Assembly (NCBI GenBank): GCA_019058245.1
Contig: JAHPZJ010000017.1
Location: forward strand, 55,113-119,112
Origin: Promethearchaeota archaeon
GTDB lineage: Archaea > Asgardarchaeota > Lokiarchaeia > Sigyniarchaeales > SOKP01
Reading direction: 5' to 3'
DNA length: 64,000 bases
Numbering within the stretch: position 1 is the first letter of the stretch; each line of letters starts with the position of its first letter. The translations under genes were made by a program, and so were the position numbers. The notes below the pieces were generated by a model. The model had not been told where the DNA came from. It made no database searches and saw only the letters and a list, made by a program, of their open reading frames with translations. This document shows, in pieces, positions 2,483 through 61,000 of the stretch.

Positions 2483-3415
2483 ATGCTTCGACATTTATTA
2501 AAAGTCTCTGATTTTTCAAAGAATGAGTGCGAGAAGGTTATTAATAAAGCAATAGAGCTTAAGAAAAATCCTAAGAAATTTAATTCAATTTTAGAAGGTG
2601 AAACACTTTTGATGTTTTTTGAAAAACCCTCTTTAAGAACACGAATTTCATTTGAAACAGGAATGCAACAATTAGGAGGGCATGCAATTTTTTATTCGAT
2701 TAAAGACTCTCCTTTAGGTAAAAAAGAAAACCTTTCAGATACTGCTAAGGTTGCTTCTAGATTTGTAAATATTATTGCTGCTCGGGTTTTTAAACGACAA
2801 GATATTAGGGATCTTGCTAAATATGCAGAAGTTCCTGTGATAAATATGTTGGATGATTTTGCACACCCATGTCAGATTTTAGGAGATTTTCAGACTATTA
2901 AAGAGAAAAAAAACAGTTTAACTACCATGAAACTATCATATTTTGGTGATGCTCATAATAATGTTACTTATGATTTAATGCGAATTTGTGCAATGTTTGG
3001 ATGGAGAATGGATGTTGCATGCCCTGATGTTCCAGAATATTCACCTGAACAAATAGTTTTAGATGAGGTTTCTGATTTATCCAAAGAAACTGGTGCAGAA
3101 GTACAAGTTATTCATAATGCCACAAATGCAGCTCAAGATTCTAGTGTAATATATACTGATAGTTGGATGAGCTATGGGATACCTCAAGAGCAGGAAGAAG
3201 AACGGAAAAAGGCTTTTATGCCTTTTCAAGTTACCCCTTCAATTATGAAAGTTGCAAAACCAGATGTGGTCTTTATGAATTGTTTGCCAGCAATGAGAGG
3301 ATATGAACAAACAGCTGATGTAATTGATGGTCCTCAATCAATTGTTTTTGATCAAGCAGAAAATAGATTGCATATTCAAAAAGCAATTATGTTGTTTTTA
3401 AGAGAAAAATTTTAA
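2483..3415 (+). CDS. argF: Ornithine carbamoyltransferase (probably catabolic)
   Basis: KPSLRTR carbamoyl-phosphate motif, HPCQ, YTDSWMS, FMNCLPA, QAENRLH; next to carbamate kinase. Confidence 0.95.
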   Translation: MLRHLLKVSDFSKNECEKVINKAIELKKNPKKFNSILEGETLLMFFEKPSLRTRISFETGMQQLGGHAIFYSIKDSPLGKKENLSDTAKVASRFVNIIAARVFKRQDIRDLAKYAEVPVINMLDDFAHPCQILGDFQTIKEKKNSLTTMKLSYFGDAHNNVTYDLMRICAMFGWRMDVACPDVPEYSPEQIVLDEVSDLSKETGAEVQVIHNATNAAQDSSVIYTDSWMSYGIPQEQEEERKKAFMPFQVTPSIMKVAKPDVVFMNCLPAMRGYEQTADVIDGPQSIVFDQAENRLHIQKAIMLFLREKF

Positions 3416-32698: not shown

Positions 32699-33166
32699 AT
32701 GTACTCCATAAGAAAAGCTAATTTTGATGATATAGATAAACTGATAGAATTACGTATTGAATTTTTAAAAGAGATTCAAGATTCTCTGAACAATATGGAA
32801 ATGAAAATATTCCAAAAATCTCTTAGAGATTTTTTTCTTGAGAAAATGAAATCTAATGAATATATATCTTGGTTGGCTGAAAATGAGAATAAAATAATAG
32901 CGACAAGTGGTTTATCTTTTTTACAAAGACCTCCTTATTTTCTAAATATAACCGGAAAATTTGCTTACATTATGAATATGTATACTAAACCTACATGGCG
33001 TAGAAAAGGAATTGGCTCAGCATTACTCGAGAAATTAATTAAAGAAATTAAAAGAAAAGGAATACAATTGGTAGTTTTACATGCAACACCCTCTGGTATA
33101 AAATTATATGAAAAATATGGTTTTAGAGGAAGTGATAGTGATAAAGAAATGATATTAAAATTATAA
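32699..33166 (+). CDS. GNAT family N-acetyltransferase
   Basis: YIMNMYTKPTWRRKGIGSALL, LHAT..G..LYEKYGF. Confidence 0.9.
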   Translation: MYSIRKANFDDIDKLIELRIEFLKEIQDSLNNMEMKIFQKSLRDFFLEKMKSNEYISWLAENENKIIATSGLSFLQRPPYFLNITGKFAYIMNMYTKPTWRRKGIGSALLEKLIKEIKRKGIQLVVLHATPSGIKLYEKYGFRGSDSDKEMILKL

Positions 33167-33452
33167 TTTAGCATACTGATTTTTAAATTCATAAAATATG
33201 ATGAGGTATGATATTACTTACTATGTTTTTTCATTAAACTTCCTTGTCTATTAATTTTTAAGAGGAAAATTGATCGAAATTGATAGATTTTTATGAAAAA
33301 ATATGCGGAATTGTTAATTTTGTAATTAAAATATTAATGATGTTCGTTTGTTTTTTTCTTTTAAGTCTTTAAGGTAAGAGAATTATTGTCAACTCTGTAA
33401 AGATTAATGATAGTGAAATTACAAGATATAATAATTTAATTTTAATAATATA

Positions 33453-33529
33453 GACTATTTACTTTATCATTAGTATTTCTGGGATTAGGATAAAATACTA
33501 ATCCAAGAAATAATCGATCTGTAAAAGTT
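33453..33529 (+). promoter_or_regulatory. Long imperfect hairpin in the hdrA 5' leader
   Basis: TATTTCT-G-GGATTAG (33474-33488) pairs with CTAATCC-A-AGAAATA (33498-33512); outer GACT/AGTT and TTTAC/GTAAA pairing; directly followed by GGAGG and GGTGA motifs. Confidence 0.4.
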
Positions 33530-33559
33530 AGGAGGTTAGACTAACTAAAGGTGAGAAAT

Positions 33560-35536
33560 ATGTCTGATAAACAGACCAATGAAAAAAATAACGAAGATCA
33601 ACCAAGAATAGGTGTGTTTGTATGCCATTGAGGTATCAATATCGCAGGAATCTTAGACATACCAAAGATAGTCGAAGAAATAAATAAATTAGATAATGTT
33701 TGGGCTTATCCATATTTATCATTATGTACTGAAGGTGGTTCCACCGAGATCAAAGAAAAACATGAAGAAATTAAATTTAATAGAGTTTTGGTCGCTGCTT
33801 GCACTCCAAAAACACATCAACCTGTTTTCCATGCAATATTGACAGAGATGGGTTTACCTCCAAGATACTTGGAATTTGTAAACATTCGAGAACATTGTTC
33901 TTTTGTACATCAAGCTCCAGAAGTACGTGAAAAAGCTACTCTAAAAGCTATTGAATTAATTAGAGCTGGGATTGCCAGAGCAAAATTATTAGAAGATGTC
34001 CCAACAAAAACCGTACCAGTAGAACCAGCAGCTTTAGTAGTAGGTGGAGGAATTGCTGGTTTGTCTGCTGCTATAGATTTAGGTGATGTGGGATATAAAG
34101 TCTATTTAGTTGAAAAGAATACAACTATAGGAGGACGTATGTCCCAACTTGATAGAACTTTCCCTACAGATGATTGTTCTATATGAATATTGGGACCAAA
34201 AATGCTTGAAGCTAACCGTCATCCAAATATAGAAATCTTATCTTACAGTGAAGTAGATAAAATTGATGGATATATTGGGAATTTCGAAGTTAAAGTAAGA
34301 AAGAAGGCTCGATTTGTTCTTGAGGATAAATGTACAGGTTGTGGTACTTGTACAGATGTATGCCCCGTTTACATAAGTAATTACTTTGATGAGCATCTTT
34401 CAGCAAGAAAGGTTATCGATATTGCATTTGCACAAGCAGTTCCCGCAATATCACAACTTGATAGAGCAGCATGTATCGAATGTTTTGCATGTGTAGATGC
34501 TTGCGAACAATCAGCTATAGATTTTAGCCAGCAAGATGAAATCGTAGAACTTAAAATTGGCACGATAATAGTTGCCACTGGTTGGGATCTTTACCAAGGA
34601 GATGACTATGGATATGGTATTTATGACAATGTAATTAATCAAATAGAATTAGAGAGGATTCTTGCTCCAAATGGTCCAACTTATGGTCATTTAAAGCGCC
34701 CTTCTGATGGTAAACGTCCTTCAAAAGTGCTCTTTATTAATTGTGTTGGATCAAGAGATATCAATAAAAATGCTCATTGTAGTGTAATTTGTTGTAATCT
34801 CTCTCTAAAAAATTCTAAACTTATCAAATCAGAATATCCAGATTCACAAATTGTTTGCGTATACATAGATATGAGATGCGCTGGTAAAGACTATGAAGAA
34901 TACTATAGAAGATCTCGGGATGCGGGAATTATTTTTGTTAAAGGATTAGTGGGAAAAATTGAAGAAGATCCGCTAACAAAAAACCTTAAAGTACAGTTTG
35001 AGCCAGTTGGAACAGATTCTGTTGTTTCTATGGAATTCCATATGGTGGTATTGTCGTCTGCTTCACTTCCATCTAAAGGTACAGTTGAAATTGCTAAAGT
35101 ATTAAATATGGAAAAAAGTCCTGACGGATTTTTAAAAGAATATCATGCGCGCCTTGATCCTATTAGTACAAAAGTACCTGGAATATATATCTGTGGCTCT
35201 GCTCAAGGTCAGAAAGAGATTGATAAAGCAGTAAGTCAAGCTCGAGGAGCAGCATCCGTAGCAGGTATTCCAATGAGTAAAGGAGAATATACTATGGAAT
35301 TAATTCGAGCCACTCCATCAGATGAAAGATGTGCAAAATGCTATAAATGCATAGAGGCTTGTCCATATAGTGCAATCTCTGTGAATGAACAAGGAAATAT
35401 TGTTGTTAACCTGATCAATTGTCGAGGATGTGGAACTTGTGCATCTTTATGTCCTTCGAAAGCTATTGAGCTAAGGTACTTTAGAGATGATCAATATATG
35501 GCAATAATAGATGAATTATTACCAATAGAGGAATAA
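33560..35536 (+). CDS. hdrA: Heterodisulfide reductase subunit A, selenoprotein (2 Sec, 658 aa)
   Basis: ATG 33560 preceded by GGTGA. In-frame TGA 33629-33631 gives RIGVFVCH-U-GINIAG (canonical CHCG); in-frame TGA 34184-34186 gives FPTDDCSI-U-ILGPKM (canonical DCxxCIL). Joins track ORFs 33788-34186 and 34190-35536 in one frame. Confidence 0.93.
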
Positions 35537-35549
35537 AGAGGTAAAGAAA

Positions 35550-36008
35550 ATGGCAGAAACAAATGATATTAAAATAATTGTTTATGCTTGTTGGAAATGA
35601 GGATATGGTTCAGCGGATATGGCAGGTACTATTCGAGCTCAGTATCCAGATTCGATTCGAAATATATTGGTACCTTGCTCTGGACGTGTAGGACCAGATC
35701 TGATAATGCGAGCATTAGGAAGAGGTGCAGATGGCGTAGTTATTAATGCTTGATATCCTGGTGAATGCGATTATGAGACAGGAAATTACCATGCATATAG
35801 ACAAGTAGAATACATTAAAGAAATTTTAAAAATCGTTGGCATGAGTCCAAATAGGTTAAAAATAATCTATTGTACCGCTGCTGAAGGTCAGAAATTTCAA
35901 AATGAAGCTATTGAAATGGATAAAACTATCCGTAAATTAGGGCCAAGTCCTCTACGTACGAAAAGCACACCTAAAAAAGAAAAAGCTAAAGCAAAAGCTA
36001 AAGCTTAA
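35550..36008 (+). CDS. mvhD: MvhD/VhuD [2Fe-2S] hydrogenase-Hdr connector subunit, selenoprotein (2 Sec, 152 aa)
   Basis: MAETNDIKIIVYACWK-U-GYGSADMAG...QYP...VPCSGRV...GADGVVINA-U-YPGECDYETGN...AAEGQKF...LGPSPL. TGA at 35598-35600 and 35751-35753 align to Fe-S ligand Cys positions. Absent from the ORF track. Confidence 0.92.
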
Positions 36009-36014
36009 AAAATA

Positions 36015-36088
36015 ATGTGTTTACTAATGAAACTGGGTTAAAAAAAATGAGAACTCAGTTGAAGAAATGGGTGCACCATATAACACAT
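36015..36088 (+). promoter_or_regulatory. Eukaryote-like SECIS element in the mvhD 3' region
   Basis: ATGA (36027-36030), then stem AACTGGGTT/AACTCAGTT (36031-36039/36052-36060), A-rich apical loop AAAAAAAATGAG, and 3' GA (36061-36062). Lower helix ATGTGTT/AACACAT (36015-36021/36082-36088). Confidence 0.85.
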
Positions 36089-36195
36089 AAAAATATTATA
36101 AATAAATTAAAACTAAAAATTTAAAATTAATATCAAAAATTTTGGGAAATTTAAGAAAAAATAATCATATAGTATAAAGTTAGAGTTGGAAATAC

Positions 36196-37335
36196 ATGGA
36201 TGCAATTGCAGAATATTTAATAAAGATAGAAGATTTCTCTAAAATCTTGACAGCTTTATTAAAAGAAAAAGCAGTGGATAAAATAATCGGAGCTGAATTG
36301 AGAGTTGATAAAAAATCTGGAAATATTGATAGATTTACCGTTCAACCAAAATTAGTAGAAAAAGAAGAAGATCTAAAAGATTTTCCATTAACTCCTTTAA
36401 TTGCATTTGGATATGCAAGAACGGATTCTGCTTCAAAATTTTTGCATAAATCCGTTGCAGGTGCAATGAATGAAAAAATAGGGCTTATCGCACGACCGTG
36501 TGACACTAGAGCCTTAATAGAACTTGCAAAAATAAAACAAGTAAACCTCGATAATCTTTTTATAATTGGTCTTGAAGATAGAGGTATGCTTCCTAAAGCA
36601 GGAAGAGAAATGAGAGCAATTAAGGATGTTGATCCAACTAAAATTGTAAAAGAAAAGGTTGGAGATAACGGTCTAATTGTGAAAATGGAAGATGGAAGTA
36701 CAAAAGAATTTAATCTTTCGGTTGCCGAGAATTGTCTGAGATGTTATCGTAAAATCCCTACAATCGCTGATTTGACGGTTAGTGATCTTGGAATTCCAAT
36801 AGATTCAGATGAGATTATCTTGAAAGTATATTCCGAAAAAGGTAGTGAAATTTTAGATAAATCAGGAATTAAAACTAAACAACTTCCAGATAAAGAGAAA
36901 AAGGCTCATTTAGATAAATATAACGAAATTATTGAAAAAGCAAAAGAAAAACGAGCAAAAGATTTAGAAGAATGGAGTAAAATTCCTCAAAAAGAAAAGA
37001 TAGCAGAACTTCTTAAATGCACTATGTGTAATACTTGCATAAGAGGGTGCCCTGTTTGCTATTGTGTGGACTGTATTTTACAGAAAAAGAGGAAAGATAA
37101 GAATATTGATAAAGCTACTTACCAATTAACACGAATAGCGCATGTTGCTGATAGATGCGTAGAATGTGGAAACTGCGATAATAATTGTCCTCAAAATCTG
37201 CCATTATCTCTCTATTTTCAGTCATTAAATGATACTTTTAAAGAAAAATTTAGTCATGAAGCAGGGATGTCTGTTAATGATATTCCATTTCGATCTGGAA
37301 AAGCAATTTCCCAGATGGAATTAGAGAAAACATAA
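36196..37335 (+). CDS. FrhB/FdhB-like F420-binding beta subunit with C-terminal 4Fe-4S dicluster
   Basis: ARPCDTRALIELAKIKQVNLDNL, NCLRC, ADLTV, CTMCNTCIRGCPVCYCVDC, RIAHVADRCVECGNCDNNCP. Confidence 0.85.
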   Translation: MDAIAEYLIKIEDFSKILTALLKEKAVDKIIGAELRVDKKSGNIDRFTVQPKLVEKEEDLKDFPLTPLIAFGYARTDSASKFLHKSVAGAMNEKIGLIARPCDTRALIELAKIKQVNLDNLFIIGLEDRGMLPKAGREMRAIKDVDPTKIVKEKVGDNGLIVKMEDGSTKEFNLSVAENCLRCYRKIPTIADLTVSDLGIPIDSDEIILKVYSEKGSEILDKSGIKTKQLPDKEKKAHLDKYNEIIEKAKEKRAKDLEEWSKIPQKEKIAELLKCTMCNTCIRGCPVCYCVDCILQKKRKDKNIDKATYQLTRIAHVADRCVECGNCDNNCPQNLPLSLYFQSLNDTFKEKFSHEAGMSVNDIPFRSGKAISQMELEKT

Positions 37336-37541
37336 ACTATATTTTTTTAATTCTTTATTTTATAATTTTATTAAAATAATAAAGATCTTTTTTAGAGAAA
37401 TAATTCCTTTTTCGTAAAAAGATATGTATAAATAGTGGATTTTTTTTCTCTTTTACAAGAAAAAATTTTCGTATTTAAGAGAATTTGCCCAAAAGTAATT
37501 AAAAAGATAAAAAAAATTCCTGTGTATTTAAAACTAAAAAT

Positions 37542-58023: not shown

Positions 58024-61000
58024 ATGAAAACCAAAATAATGGTCCTAAGAGGAAATATAAGGAAAAAAATATCAGCGTTAAGTATTTTTTTTATGATATT
58101 TGTCTCAACTCTATTAATATTTTCTTTTAGCCATATTCAAAATAATAACACCGTTCTATATGATGATGATAGATTTACCTTTAATGATCTTAAAAATCCT
58201 CAATTAGGAGCTCAAGAGATTCTAACAATCGAGTGGCTTGAAAATCCTACTTTTGAAGATCCCGTCAACCCATGGTATTCCGAAATGGAGGGCGATCTTT
58301 CCGATATTCAAGCTACTACAGGTTCAGGAGAGGCAAACTTTCATGTTTTAGGAAATTCAGGAGTACAAAATATTCATGACCTTTCTGATACTAATTGGAC
58401 TGCATTTAATAATCCCGAATTTCCTATTGAACCTAGTGATCATGGTATAAATGGTTCTGGTTGCTGGATTACTCACACTTGGAATGAAAATATTGATCAA
58501 TCACTAAATACTCCTAGTATTCATTGGAAAAGGAATGTTACTATGCAAGTCAATATGTCAGACTATATAATTACTTCCGCTTCACTTGAAACAAATTATA
58601 GTGCATTCGTTCAAGCATTAGATCATGATGGTGGAGGTGTAGAAGTACCGGGAGATTATACTGAAGGACAGATTCCGGGTGTAGATACTCAATTTGGGAT
58701 TGGTGATTTTGTTACGTTTTATGTCGAGATTTCAGATACAAAAAATAGCTTCTCTTATAGAATAGCTTCAAATAAAACTAAAAATTTGGGTCAAGATGGA
58801 TTGCCATCGCAAAATAATGTGATAATAACTAATCATACTCATGTACCATTGAATGTAATATCAGAAGATCTTCTCATTTCTTATTTAACTGCCTGTTTAC
58901 AAAATGATCATTATAACTTTACAATTACATTAGGAATAGATATTTATTGTGAAGATAATGAATATAATGTAGATATTGACAGATTTAAATTATTAGCTAT
59001 TGAGGCTTTTAATTTAACATTTTCCTATGAAAAAAAAATTAATCAATTTAATACTGTTTCATGGAAACAAGATGGAGATAAAATAAGTGATATTAGTAAT
59101 GATACTATTATAATAAATCAAGCTAAACTTAATTTTAAATATCATGCTAACTATAATTGGACTGATGAGGCATCCAATTCTGAAATCCAAGTTTTCATTA
59201 ACAATAATAAGGTATCAAAAACAATAAAACTTCTAAGTATTGAAGCAAATAATATTTATCAATTTACAAGTACAGATGGTTTTGATATTACTTCGCTCAT
59301 TCCATACAATACAGTAATTAATTTTTCTATTCAACTATCTTTAACAGATAAACCCTTTCCACTAGATAAAAATATCACATTTACTATAGATGACGTGTAT
59401 CTTAATATTTCATATACTGTGGAATTTCCTGATTATCAAACAAATCTACAAGTGTATTTCAATGGAGTTAATAAAACAATTTCTCCACTTTATAATCATC
59501 CTGTAGGTTATGACTTGAATATAACTGTAAAATACCCTGATGATTCTGGCAATCACATCTCAGGAGCAGTAGTGGAGTTATCAGGTAATTTAACTGGAAC
59601 TCTAATAGAAAATGAAATACTTAAACAGTATACGATCATTATTGATGCAAATGATTTGGATGTAGGAACTTATTATATAAAAATAATCGCTCATAAAATA
59701 AATTATAAGATAAGTAAAATAAGTCCTGTTATCACGGTTCTTCCATATATTTCACAAGATTTGCAATTATTTCTAAATGGTGAAAATCAAACATCAAATC
59801 CATCATTCGACATTTCTCTTGATAAATTATTAAATATAACAATTAAATATTGTACTAATTTTGGAACTCCTGTGACAGGAGCATCAGTAGTATTAACTGG
59901 AGAAGGGATTCTAGAAAATCTAAATGAGAGTAGTTCATTTAATCAATATTCAGTTATAATGAATACAACAAAACAATTTAAAGAGGGAAATAATCCTTTA
60001 ACAATTACAGCTAGTAAATTAAATTATGAAACAAAATTTAAATATCCAAGAATAAATGTCAGAAAAATAAATTCTCTCATAACTCCTGTAAATAATACTA
60101 ATACAATAAGTATTAAACCGGGAGGAGATGCTTTGATTCAAGTCTATATAAATAATACGGATTTTGATGAGCTTATCAAAGGAGCGAATGTAACACTTTC
60201 TTGTGAGTTTAAAGGTAGTAAATCTCTTGAAGATCCTGATAATGATGGAATATATGAGTATAATTTGACTGATATTCCTGCTGGAACACATAAAATAACG
60301 ATTAACGCTTATGGAGCTGATAAATATAATTTTGTAAGTCTTGAAATTATAGTAGCAGCAATTCCGCCTGCAAATAATTCTTTTATTTTTCGAATTCTAT
60401 TAACGATAGCAGCTATAGCATCTATAGCATTAGCAGGTTATGTTTATGCATATCAAAAAGTGTTAAAATTTCCTCGAGCTGTTAGAAAAGTTCGTAAATA
60501 TCGAAGAACTCTAAGAAAAGCAAAAGAACCAAAAATATCCATTTTTGACCGTAAAAAAGCATTCGACAATGTTTATCAAAAGGAAATAAGTGCAACTTCA
60601 AGATTTTTAAAAGTAAAAATGAAAAAGGAAGGAAAAGAAGAAGAATCACCAGAAAAGCTAATTAAACAGGCGCCAGAAGATTCTGTATTTCATAAAGATG
60701 AAAGACAAACAAGTCAAAATACTAATTCCTATAATTTGAATAAAAAAAATAAGGATAAAATAAAAACTCAAGAATCATTCAGAAGAAGACTTAGTATATA
60801 CTTAAAAAGAAGATGGACAGGATCCTTTAGAATGAATAATATGAGAAGATTTCTTTTTATAATAATTATTTTAACTTCCATAACTCTATTTTCTTTCATT
60901 ATAAACCCACATTTCGGTCAAAATTCAATCAATTTTTCAGAAAAATCGACTAATATCATAGATAATGAAAATTTAGGTAATCTTTGTTTATCAGCACAAG

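Follow-up and report, generated by a model that had tools for sequence, protein, structure and literature searches.

We analyzed a stretch of 64,000 nucleotides (nt) from a Promethearchaeota archaeon of the Asgardarchaeota (Lokiarchaeia, Sigyniarchaeales, SOKP01; assembly GCA_019058245.1, contig JAHPZJ010000017.1, positions 55,113 to 119,112), hereafter the window. It contains two adjacent genes, hdrA (heterodisulfide reductase subunit A) and mvhD/vhuD, each with two in-frame UGA codons, and a single selenocysteine insertion sequence (SECIS) element of the Lokiarchaeal type (lokiSECIS) behind mvhD. We propose that they form a two-gene selenoprotein transcription unit in which one lokiSECIS serves all four UGA codons, and give this reading a probability of about 0.8. 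The same idea, one SECIS acting across two cistrons, was the core of the original prediction, which was made from the sequence alone; it is supported by the lack of a second element in the window and by the correspondence of the UGA codons to cysteines. The arrangement itself is already known. In Lokiarchaeota, the genes of HdrA and VhuD always form a tandem in which they overlap or lie very close together. HdrA contains as many as four selenocysteines (Sec), one of them at a canonical site near residue 200, and always ends with UAA or UAG, and a single lokiSECIS is found only downstream of VhuD (Mariotti et al. 2016, PMC4989117). That this SECIS is shared over about 2 kb, across the hdrA/vhuD boundary, was an explicit conclusion of that study, still by inference. 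The shared structure of hdrA and frhD was then extended to 227 Asgard genomes, with a model that includes a lower stem (Huang et al. 2024, PMC11227280). Hence, the original prediction was correct in stating that Sec-containing HdrA and VhuD and eukaryote-like SECIS were known in these organisms, but undersold the literature, since cross-cistron sharing had been published in 2016.

All features of the window given here lie on the forward strand. The gene hdrA (33560-35536) encodes 658 amino acids (aa) when TGA is read as Sec (U), and mvhD (35550-36008), a member of the FlpD family, encodes 152 aa under the same reading. Both end with TAA and, besides their two TGA codons each, have no other in-frame stop. 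With translation table 11 the same stretch yields fragments of 132, 448, 44, and 55 aa, and ordinary gene callers would therefore fragment both genes, as had been anticipated. HdrA matches solved chains over its full length (9sfi_A, E 2.4e-205, residues 14-654; 5odc_A, E 5.8e-195; PDB) and has the FAD and 4Fe-4S domains of Pfam. MvhD covers the entire Pfam model PF02662 (E 1.6e-41, model positions 1-123 of 123) and matches the MvhD chains of the PDB with E of about 1e-33. The genes are separated by a spacer of only 13 nt (35537-35549), which agrees with the gap given in the original prediction and holds a Shine-Dalgarno-like AGAGGT for mvhD.

The four TGA codons were all found at the coordinates first reported for them. 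They encode HdrA residues 24 (33629-33631, motif VCHUG) and 209 (34184-34186), and MvhD residues 17 (35598-35600) and 68 (35751-35753), which places them 2398, 1843, 429, and 276 nt upstream of the AUGA of the SECIS, respectively. The genome (labelled G000) is a metagenome-assembled genome (MAG), 76% complete, and has about 14 sets of hdrA/mvhD paralogues. Three hdrA-mvhD pairs have stops exactly at cysteine-aligned sites: the pair of the window, one at C13:36153-38573 (4+2 UGA), and one at C28:246455-244062 (2+2 UGA). All other paralogues have cysteine at these sites, such that each TGA of the window matches a cysteine in at least 10 paralogues of the same genome (12 for MvhD residues 17 and 68). 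The comparison with solved structures gives the same picture. HdrA residue 24 is opposite a cysteine in 9sfi_A, both MvhD residues are opposite cysteines in the PDB chains, and HdrA residue 209 is aligned to a residue printed as X in 9sfi_A, which is the canonical Sec site. Hence, HdrA combines full-length homology with a predicted Sec at the canonical position, and MvhD combines the FlpD domain with two predicted Sec at conserved cysteine positions. The correspondence between UGA and cysteine was thus confirmed for all four codons, which are almost certainly read as selenocysteine.

In principle, the TGA codons could have arisen from errors of sequencing or assembly, or both genes could be pseudogenes. 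The only point in favor of this explanation is that the genome is a MAG. Dozens of independent assemblies, whose proteins are 63-99% identical to those of the window, have the same TGA codons, as do the two other Sec pairs of the genome; the remainder of both frames is intact. They were retained in 39 of 41 related genomes, which rules out the sequencing errors that had been named as a way for the prediction to fail. Across these 41 genomes mvhD keeps 2 TGA and hdrA 1 to 5, counting orthologues and paralogues from 99% to about 50% protein identity. This conservation excludes sequencing error and pseudogenes for practical purposes, and we regard the probability of this explanation as negligible.

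The element behind mvhD starts with AUGA at 36027-36030, 18 nt past the mvhD stop codon. Its main stem has 9 bp (36031-36039 with 36052-36060), all standard pairs with one G-U among them, and is closed by an apical loop of 12 nt (36040-36051) that starts with eight A and ends with AG. A GA follows directly 3' of the stem (36061-36062). Sequence and fold thus agree on the hairpin first described at 36027-36062, and none of 200 shuffles folds as stably. With the AUGA 5' of a 9-bp stem, the A-rich start and AG end of the loop, the GA on the 3' side, and UGA-containing genes upstream, the element has the features of a lokiSECIS, and calling it eukaryote-type was right in the sense that it belongs to the eukaryote-like Lokiarchaeal type. 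Its full extent is a three-helix junction of 74 nt (36015-36088), in which a lower stem, H1 (36015-36021 with 36082-36088), encloses the AUGA/GA hairpin, H2, and a side hairpin, H3 (36067-36079). The loop of H3 is GUGCA here and GCAA, GCGA, or GUGA in other copies. The minimum free energy fold of 36011-36092 alone is exactly the structure of our covariance model, R1 (z = -3.56).

The structure of the element is conserved beyond its sequence. In the three Sec pairs of the genome, an AUGA, a 9-bp stem with a loop of 11-12 nt, and a GA or AA are found directly behind mvhD, with stem sequences that are all different. The element is at the same place in 50 tandem-pair loci of relatives. When 32 elements were aligned with MAFFT, 83% of the cells paired, against 49.6% in shuffled controls and at most 43% when the partners were slid, and the AUGA column was invariant. 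An alignment of 69 elements to the model gave 86.7% against 49.3%, a covariation score of 0.884 against 0.233, double changes at 19 of 19 pairs, and covariation at all nine pairs of the H2 stem; this second alignment is biased towards the structure, while the MAFFT alignment is not. The apical loop has 11, 12, or 13 nt in orthologues, following the length of the run of A; the published length is 11 nt.

We searched the entire window for a second SECIS with R1, on both strands and without filters. There was a single match, at 36011-36098 (72.8 bits, E 4e-17), and the next best had 17 bits. The element of the window is part of the seed of R1, so its own score is expected, and the informative part of this result is the absence of other matches. 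Nothing rose above noise in 33167-36010, which covers hdrA, the spacer, and the 5' untranslated region (UTR). The 80 nt after each of the four UGA codons have no excess structure relative to shuffles (z from -0.49 to +0.62), and bacterial-type hairpins sought after each UGA were not found. A loose pattern scan had given 68 matches, mostly by chance, and was replaced by the covariance model. The covariance search suggested with the original prediction thus returned exactly one SECIS-like element, and the separate hdrA SECIS that would have contradicted it was not seen in the window.

An alternative is that hdrA has its own unrecognised signal, in the coding sequence or the 5' UTR, and that the SECIS behind mvhD serves mvhD only. 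A candidate is a hairpin in the 5' UTR, with a 7-bp stem and a 9-nt loop, at 33482-33504 (the region 33480-33559 has z = -2.7). Judged by eye, orthologues keep a hairpin at this position with differing stem sequences, so that structure is kept between them. It has neither an AUGA/GA nor a GAA/A core and is thus not SECIS-like. R1 can detect lokiSECIS-like elements only, and in one relative, described below, a SECIS follows hdrA as well as mvhD; these observations also speak for a separate signal. Against it, neither of the hdrA UGA codons is followed by excess structure, and RNAz found no other conserved structure in the previous study of these genes (Mariotti et al. 2016, PMC4989117). Furthermore, stand-alone Sec-hdrA genes use a normal lokiSECIS at the 3' end, which places the decoding of hdrA in that class. 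We consider a separate hdrA signal unlikely.

Relatives provide natural controls for the sharing of the element. Among tandem-pair loci, 49 of 50 have one R1 match behind mvhD, in a scan that included 1.5 kb of hdrA in L011-L040 and only mvhD with about 350 nt downstream in L041-L060 (n=20). One of these 49 loci, L035, has a second match about 1.1 kb further downstream. In the divergent loci L042, L055, and L058 the elements were located by the covariance model. Of 20 stand-alone or divergent hdrA loci, 15 have a SECIS match, located either where hdrA ends or after its mvhD. In stand-alone Sec-hdrA, such as that of L077, the SECIS overlaps or directly follows the hdrA stop. This includes Sec-hdrA of the same genus, with 2-4 UGA and no mvhD within about 1.3 kb downstream, which have their own SECIS at the hdrA stop. 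The stand-alone elements are at L077:1334-1420(-), L078:1327-1413(-), L080:2100-2186(+), and L090:1379-1465(-). No recognisable element was found in L085 and L091.

In some loci the two genes are further apart. In L086, from another family, hdrA and mvhD are separated by more than 400 nt and a SECIS follows each of them (2153-2239 and 3232-3313; 27 and 29.6 bits), both with AUGA, GA, H1, and H3. This locus is a natural exception to the sharing of one element. In L087 and L088, also from another family, the gap is about 200 nt and a single GUGA-type hairpin is found after mvhD. Since these two loci keep one element, the length of the gap alone does not predict a second SECIS. In the sequences compared here, the position of the SECIS shifts with the 3' end of whichever unit contains Sec, as sharing predicts, and L086 is the only split pair with two elements. 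If this pattern is true, it is natural genetic support for sharing. The cleanest comparative proof would be a pair with Sec in HdrA, a cysteine-only MvhD, and a SECIS behind mvhD; a cross-check by eye found none in the 41 sampled genomes.

Sharing of the element also supposes that both genes are on one mRNA. Upstream of hdrA, an A/T-rich, TATA-like block (33428-33472) is nearly invariant in 18 orthologous regions, and the sequence further upstream is unrelated between these genomes. The block is likely the promoter, where the transcription unit of hdrA would start. Translation of hdrA has a Shine-Dalgarno-like AAAGGTGA (33547-33554), conserved in 18 of 18 orthologues, in front of a start codon that is ATG, TTG, or GTG at one aligned position. 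Two such motifs, both conserved in orthologues, are present in 33530-33554. AAGGTGA is about 6 nt before the hdrA start, and AGGAGGT, at about 24 nt, is too distant to serve it. Alternatively, hdrA and mvhD could be transcribed separately, with the SECIS acting in trans, or the UGA codons of hdrA could be read through at a low level without any SECIS. That mvhD has its own ribosome-binding site fits with separate transcripts. Yet, the 13-nt gap is too small for a terminator and a promoter, and the tight spacing of hdrA and mvhD is general among Sec pairs. As for unaided read-through, a UGA at codon 24 would be very costly. We find both variants very unlikely, and favor a single hdrA-mvhD transcript.

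This transcript probably ends before the next gene. A gene encoding an FrhB-like Fe-S protein (36196-37335; PF04432 and 4Fe-4S domains), without UGA, lies downstream. It was detected in 19 group-A orthologue loci, in each of which it starts 122-145 nt past the SECIS. Within the genus it is constantly found downstream of the Sec hdrA-mvhD pair. A TATA-like box, GGGAAATTTAAG (36139-36159), is kept in most of the 19 orthologous spacers and is possibly a separate promoter of this gene. Because the frhB-like gene seems to have its own promoter-like box, the SECIS would be in the 3' UTR of a two-gene mRNA, and is probably not inside a three-gene mRNA. No clear oligo-T terminator was seen behind the SECIS in the copy of the window. 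The original prediction had the SECIS act on a polycistronic mRNA and lie between mvhD and a further downstream gene: the position holds, and the conserved promoter-like box downstream would speak against a three-gene message.

These elements suggest the following mechanism. Transcription would start behind the promoter-like block, near 33430-33470, and run through both genes into the 3' UTR. On this single hdrA-mvhD mRNA, each cistron would be initiated independently at its own Shine-Dalgarno-like site. The lokiSECIS at 36015-36088, with its kink-turn-type AUGA/GA core, would direct an EFSec of the archaeal/eukaryotic type to the mRNA, which would bring Sec-tRNASec to the UGA codons at HdrA 24 and 209 and MvhD 17 and 68. 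The UAA ends of hdrA and mvhD would be immune to recoding. Co-transcription, the actual insertion of Sec, and the action of one SECIS on both cistrons are all steps that we infer from sequence.

Several points weigh against this reading. The evidence is at the sequence level. No SECIS family of Rfam matches the element: in our scan none reached the gathering score, and in 33000-37500 there was only noise at E up to 10, so that the curated eukaryotic models (SECIS_1 and related) do not match it. A recoding signal of a novel type in hdrA could have been missed by R1, which is built on lokiSECIS. In 2025, a lokiarchaeal SECIS was reported to be non-functional in a Methanococcus maripaludis reporter (PMC11881835), and given this failed test the insertion of Sec by this class of elements must be regarded as predicted. 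Finally, the Sec machinery of the genome is only partly accounted for. The EFSec/SelB-like and PSTK-like genes are below their NCBIfam cut-offs (235.7 bits against 242 for the former; 142.7 bits against 290 for the latter, which is full length with E 1.5e-41), and tRNA-Sec and SelD were not found in the 76%-complete MAG.

The other components are more favorable. SepSecS is present (TIGR03531, 472.7 bits, above the cut-off), and the EFSec-like gene is 5 kb from it. Among eight congeners, tRNA-Sec was found above the gathering score in six and SelD, with one in-frame TGA, in all. Of the machinery that the original prediction expected in the genome, SepSecS and the EFSec-like and PSTK-like genes are thus there, but tRNA-Sec and SelD only in congeners. 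The likeliest reason is the incompleteness of the MAG. The Rfam matches to tRNA-Sec in the genome are in fact tRNA-Gly and tRNA-Ser, and a tRNA-SeC reported by ARAGORN is spurious, with an intron of 2923 nt. In this genome of 3.1 Mb, the ARAGORN count was only 6 for intron-less tRNAs and rose to 19, some of them spurious, once introns were permitted. Such low numbers imply that the tRNA genes are largely intron-containing or missing from the MAG. The lack of tRNA-Sec and SelD in the MAG could also mean that UGA is decoded as another amino acid, such as cysteine or tryptophan by a near-cognate tRNA, or that the codon was reassigned. TGA terminates 222 of 1580 long open reading frames (ORFs) genome-wide (14%), and is thus an ordinary stop that was not reassigned. 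Moreover, the TGA codons of hdrA and mvhD are at cysteine-aligned sites and are accompanied by a SECIS, SepSecS is encoded here, and the congeners have the two missing components. Decoding as anything other than Sec is, in our view, highly improbable.

The use of Sec in this organism extends beyond the pair of the window. A scan of the genome with R1 gave 11 matches, one of them borderline, behind UGA-containing ORFs, which indicates that the Sec system is in active use. They follow the three hdrA-mvhD pairs, PrxL with a UxxU box, VhuU, whose stop is supplied by the AUGA of the SECIS, three small membrane proteins, two proteins with adjacent Sec, and the borderline case. The three membrane-protein ORFs have about 80-90 aa and one in-frame UGA each (motifs SUGE, AUGT, and GGUGC), with SECIS of 69-74 bits behind them (L064:613-697 and L064:1080-1164 in G000:C27; L063:201-285 in G000:C13). 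We did not find them among the published Asgard selenoprotein families. The two proteins with adjacent UGA-UGA are paralogous, of about 170 aa (HADUUADV and SGCUUEKV), and are followed by a weaker SECIS variant with an 8-bp stem and a 13-nt loop (34-37 bits; L065:331-407(-) and L065:2126-2202(-), that is, G000:C10:58230-58306 and 60025-60101). In the pair with six UGA (SECIS at L061:2646-2730, G000:C13:38545-38628), the UGA of the AUGA is in the mvhD frame, at codon 154, and may be the stop of mvhD, with a TAA two codons on. The apical loop of this element starts with GUAAA instead of AAAAA.

The genome also has clusters of the cysteine type, at G000:C13:42602-56236 and at G000:C6:50353-57502 and 144763-151918. 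In these, the match to HdrA is in three consecutive permuted pieces (residues of about 154-578, 13-246, and 325-654), with an mvhD after each set. They look like split or rearranged HdrA-like gene sets. Five genes of the actin family have strong matches (441 bits); these and the lokiSECIS are consistent with an Asgard archaeon of the Lokiarchaeia type.

The lokiSECIS elements that we examined are all three-helix junctions (window 36015-36088; L061:2646-2730; L062:163-247; L063:201-285; L064:613-697), with GCAA/GCGA/GUGA-like loops on the side hairpin. We therefore raise, tentatively and with less confidence than doubt, the idea that the element serving both cistrons is the 74-nt three-way junction and not the published hairpin of 36 nt, and that the junction shows covariation in each of the 69 elements, which represent several families and selenoprotein genes. 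Under the same tentative idea, the side arm could be a docking site for a putative archaeal SECIS-binding factor, and might account for the failure of a minimal lokiSECIS in Methanococcus. We found no mention of a side hairpin or three-way junction for these elements in the open-access literature.

How does this locus compare with known systems? It resembles the HdrA-VhuD genes of Mariotti et al. in gene order, the very short spacer, the multi-Sec HdrA with its canonical position, the two-Sec VhuD, the single AUGA/9-bp/A-rich-loop/GA element behind vhuD, the UAA end of hdrA, and UGA codons that span about 2.4 kb. Nothing essential differs; the loop has 12 nt here (11-13 in orthologues), against 11 in that study, and the covarying lower stem and the side hairpin are added. 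It shares with the type I eukaryotic-SECIS-like elements of Asgard archaea the 5'-AUGA_GA-3' core, the lack of an apical mini-stem, and the lower stem; hdrA and frhD are reported there to share one structure. The two genes are described in that work as invariably adjacent (Huang et al. 2024, PMC11227280), whereas we find stand-alone Sec-hdrA with their own SECIS in the same genus. In Methanococcales and Methanopyrus, the SECIS behind vhuD also contains an AUGA motif and serves two UGA separated by 50 codons, but its core is the euryarchaeal GAA_A bulge, and the HdrA of these organisms has one Sec and is not proposed to share the vhuD element. Relative to eukaryotic SECIS (RF00031), the probable location in the 3' UTR, the kink-turn-type AUGA/GA core, and the unpaired A of the loop are similar, as is the proposed distant action on several UGA codons, known from SELENOP mRNAs. 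In contrast, helix II is shorter here (9 bp), the mRNA would be polycistronic, and the Rfam model is unmatched. To our knowledge, no SBP2 is known in archaea.

The practical value of these results is in annotation, since both genes are split by standard callers. Our additions to what was known are modest: the full size of the element with its three helices, of use in constructing reporters, and the natural variants that support the sharing of a SECIS. The recoding of several UGA codons by one 3' element, reaching 2.4 kb upstream and past a cistron boundary, would be unusual biology. Present in the literature since 2016, such a cross-cistron SECIS bears on the origin of the eukaryotic SECIS system.

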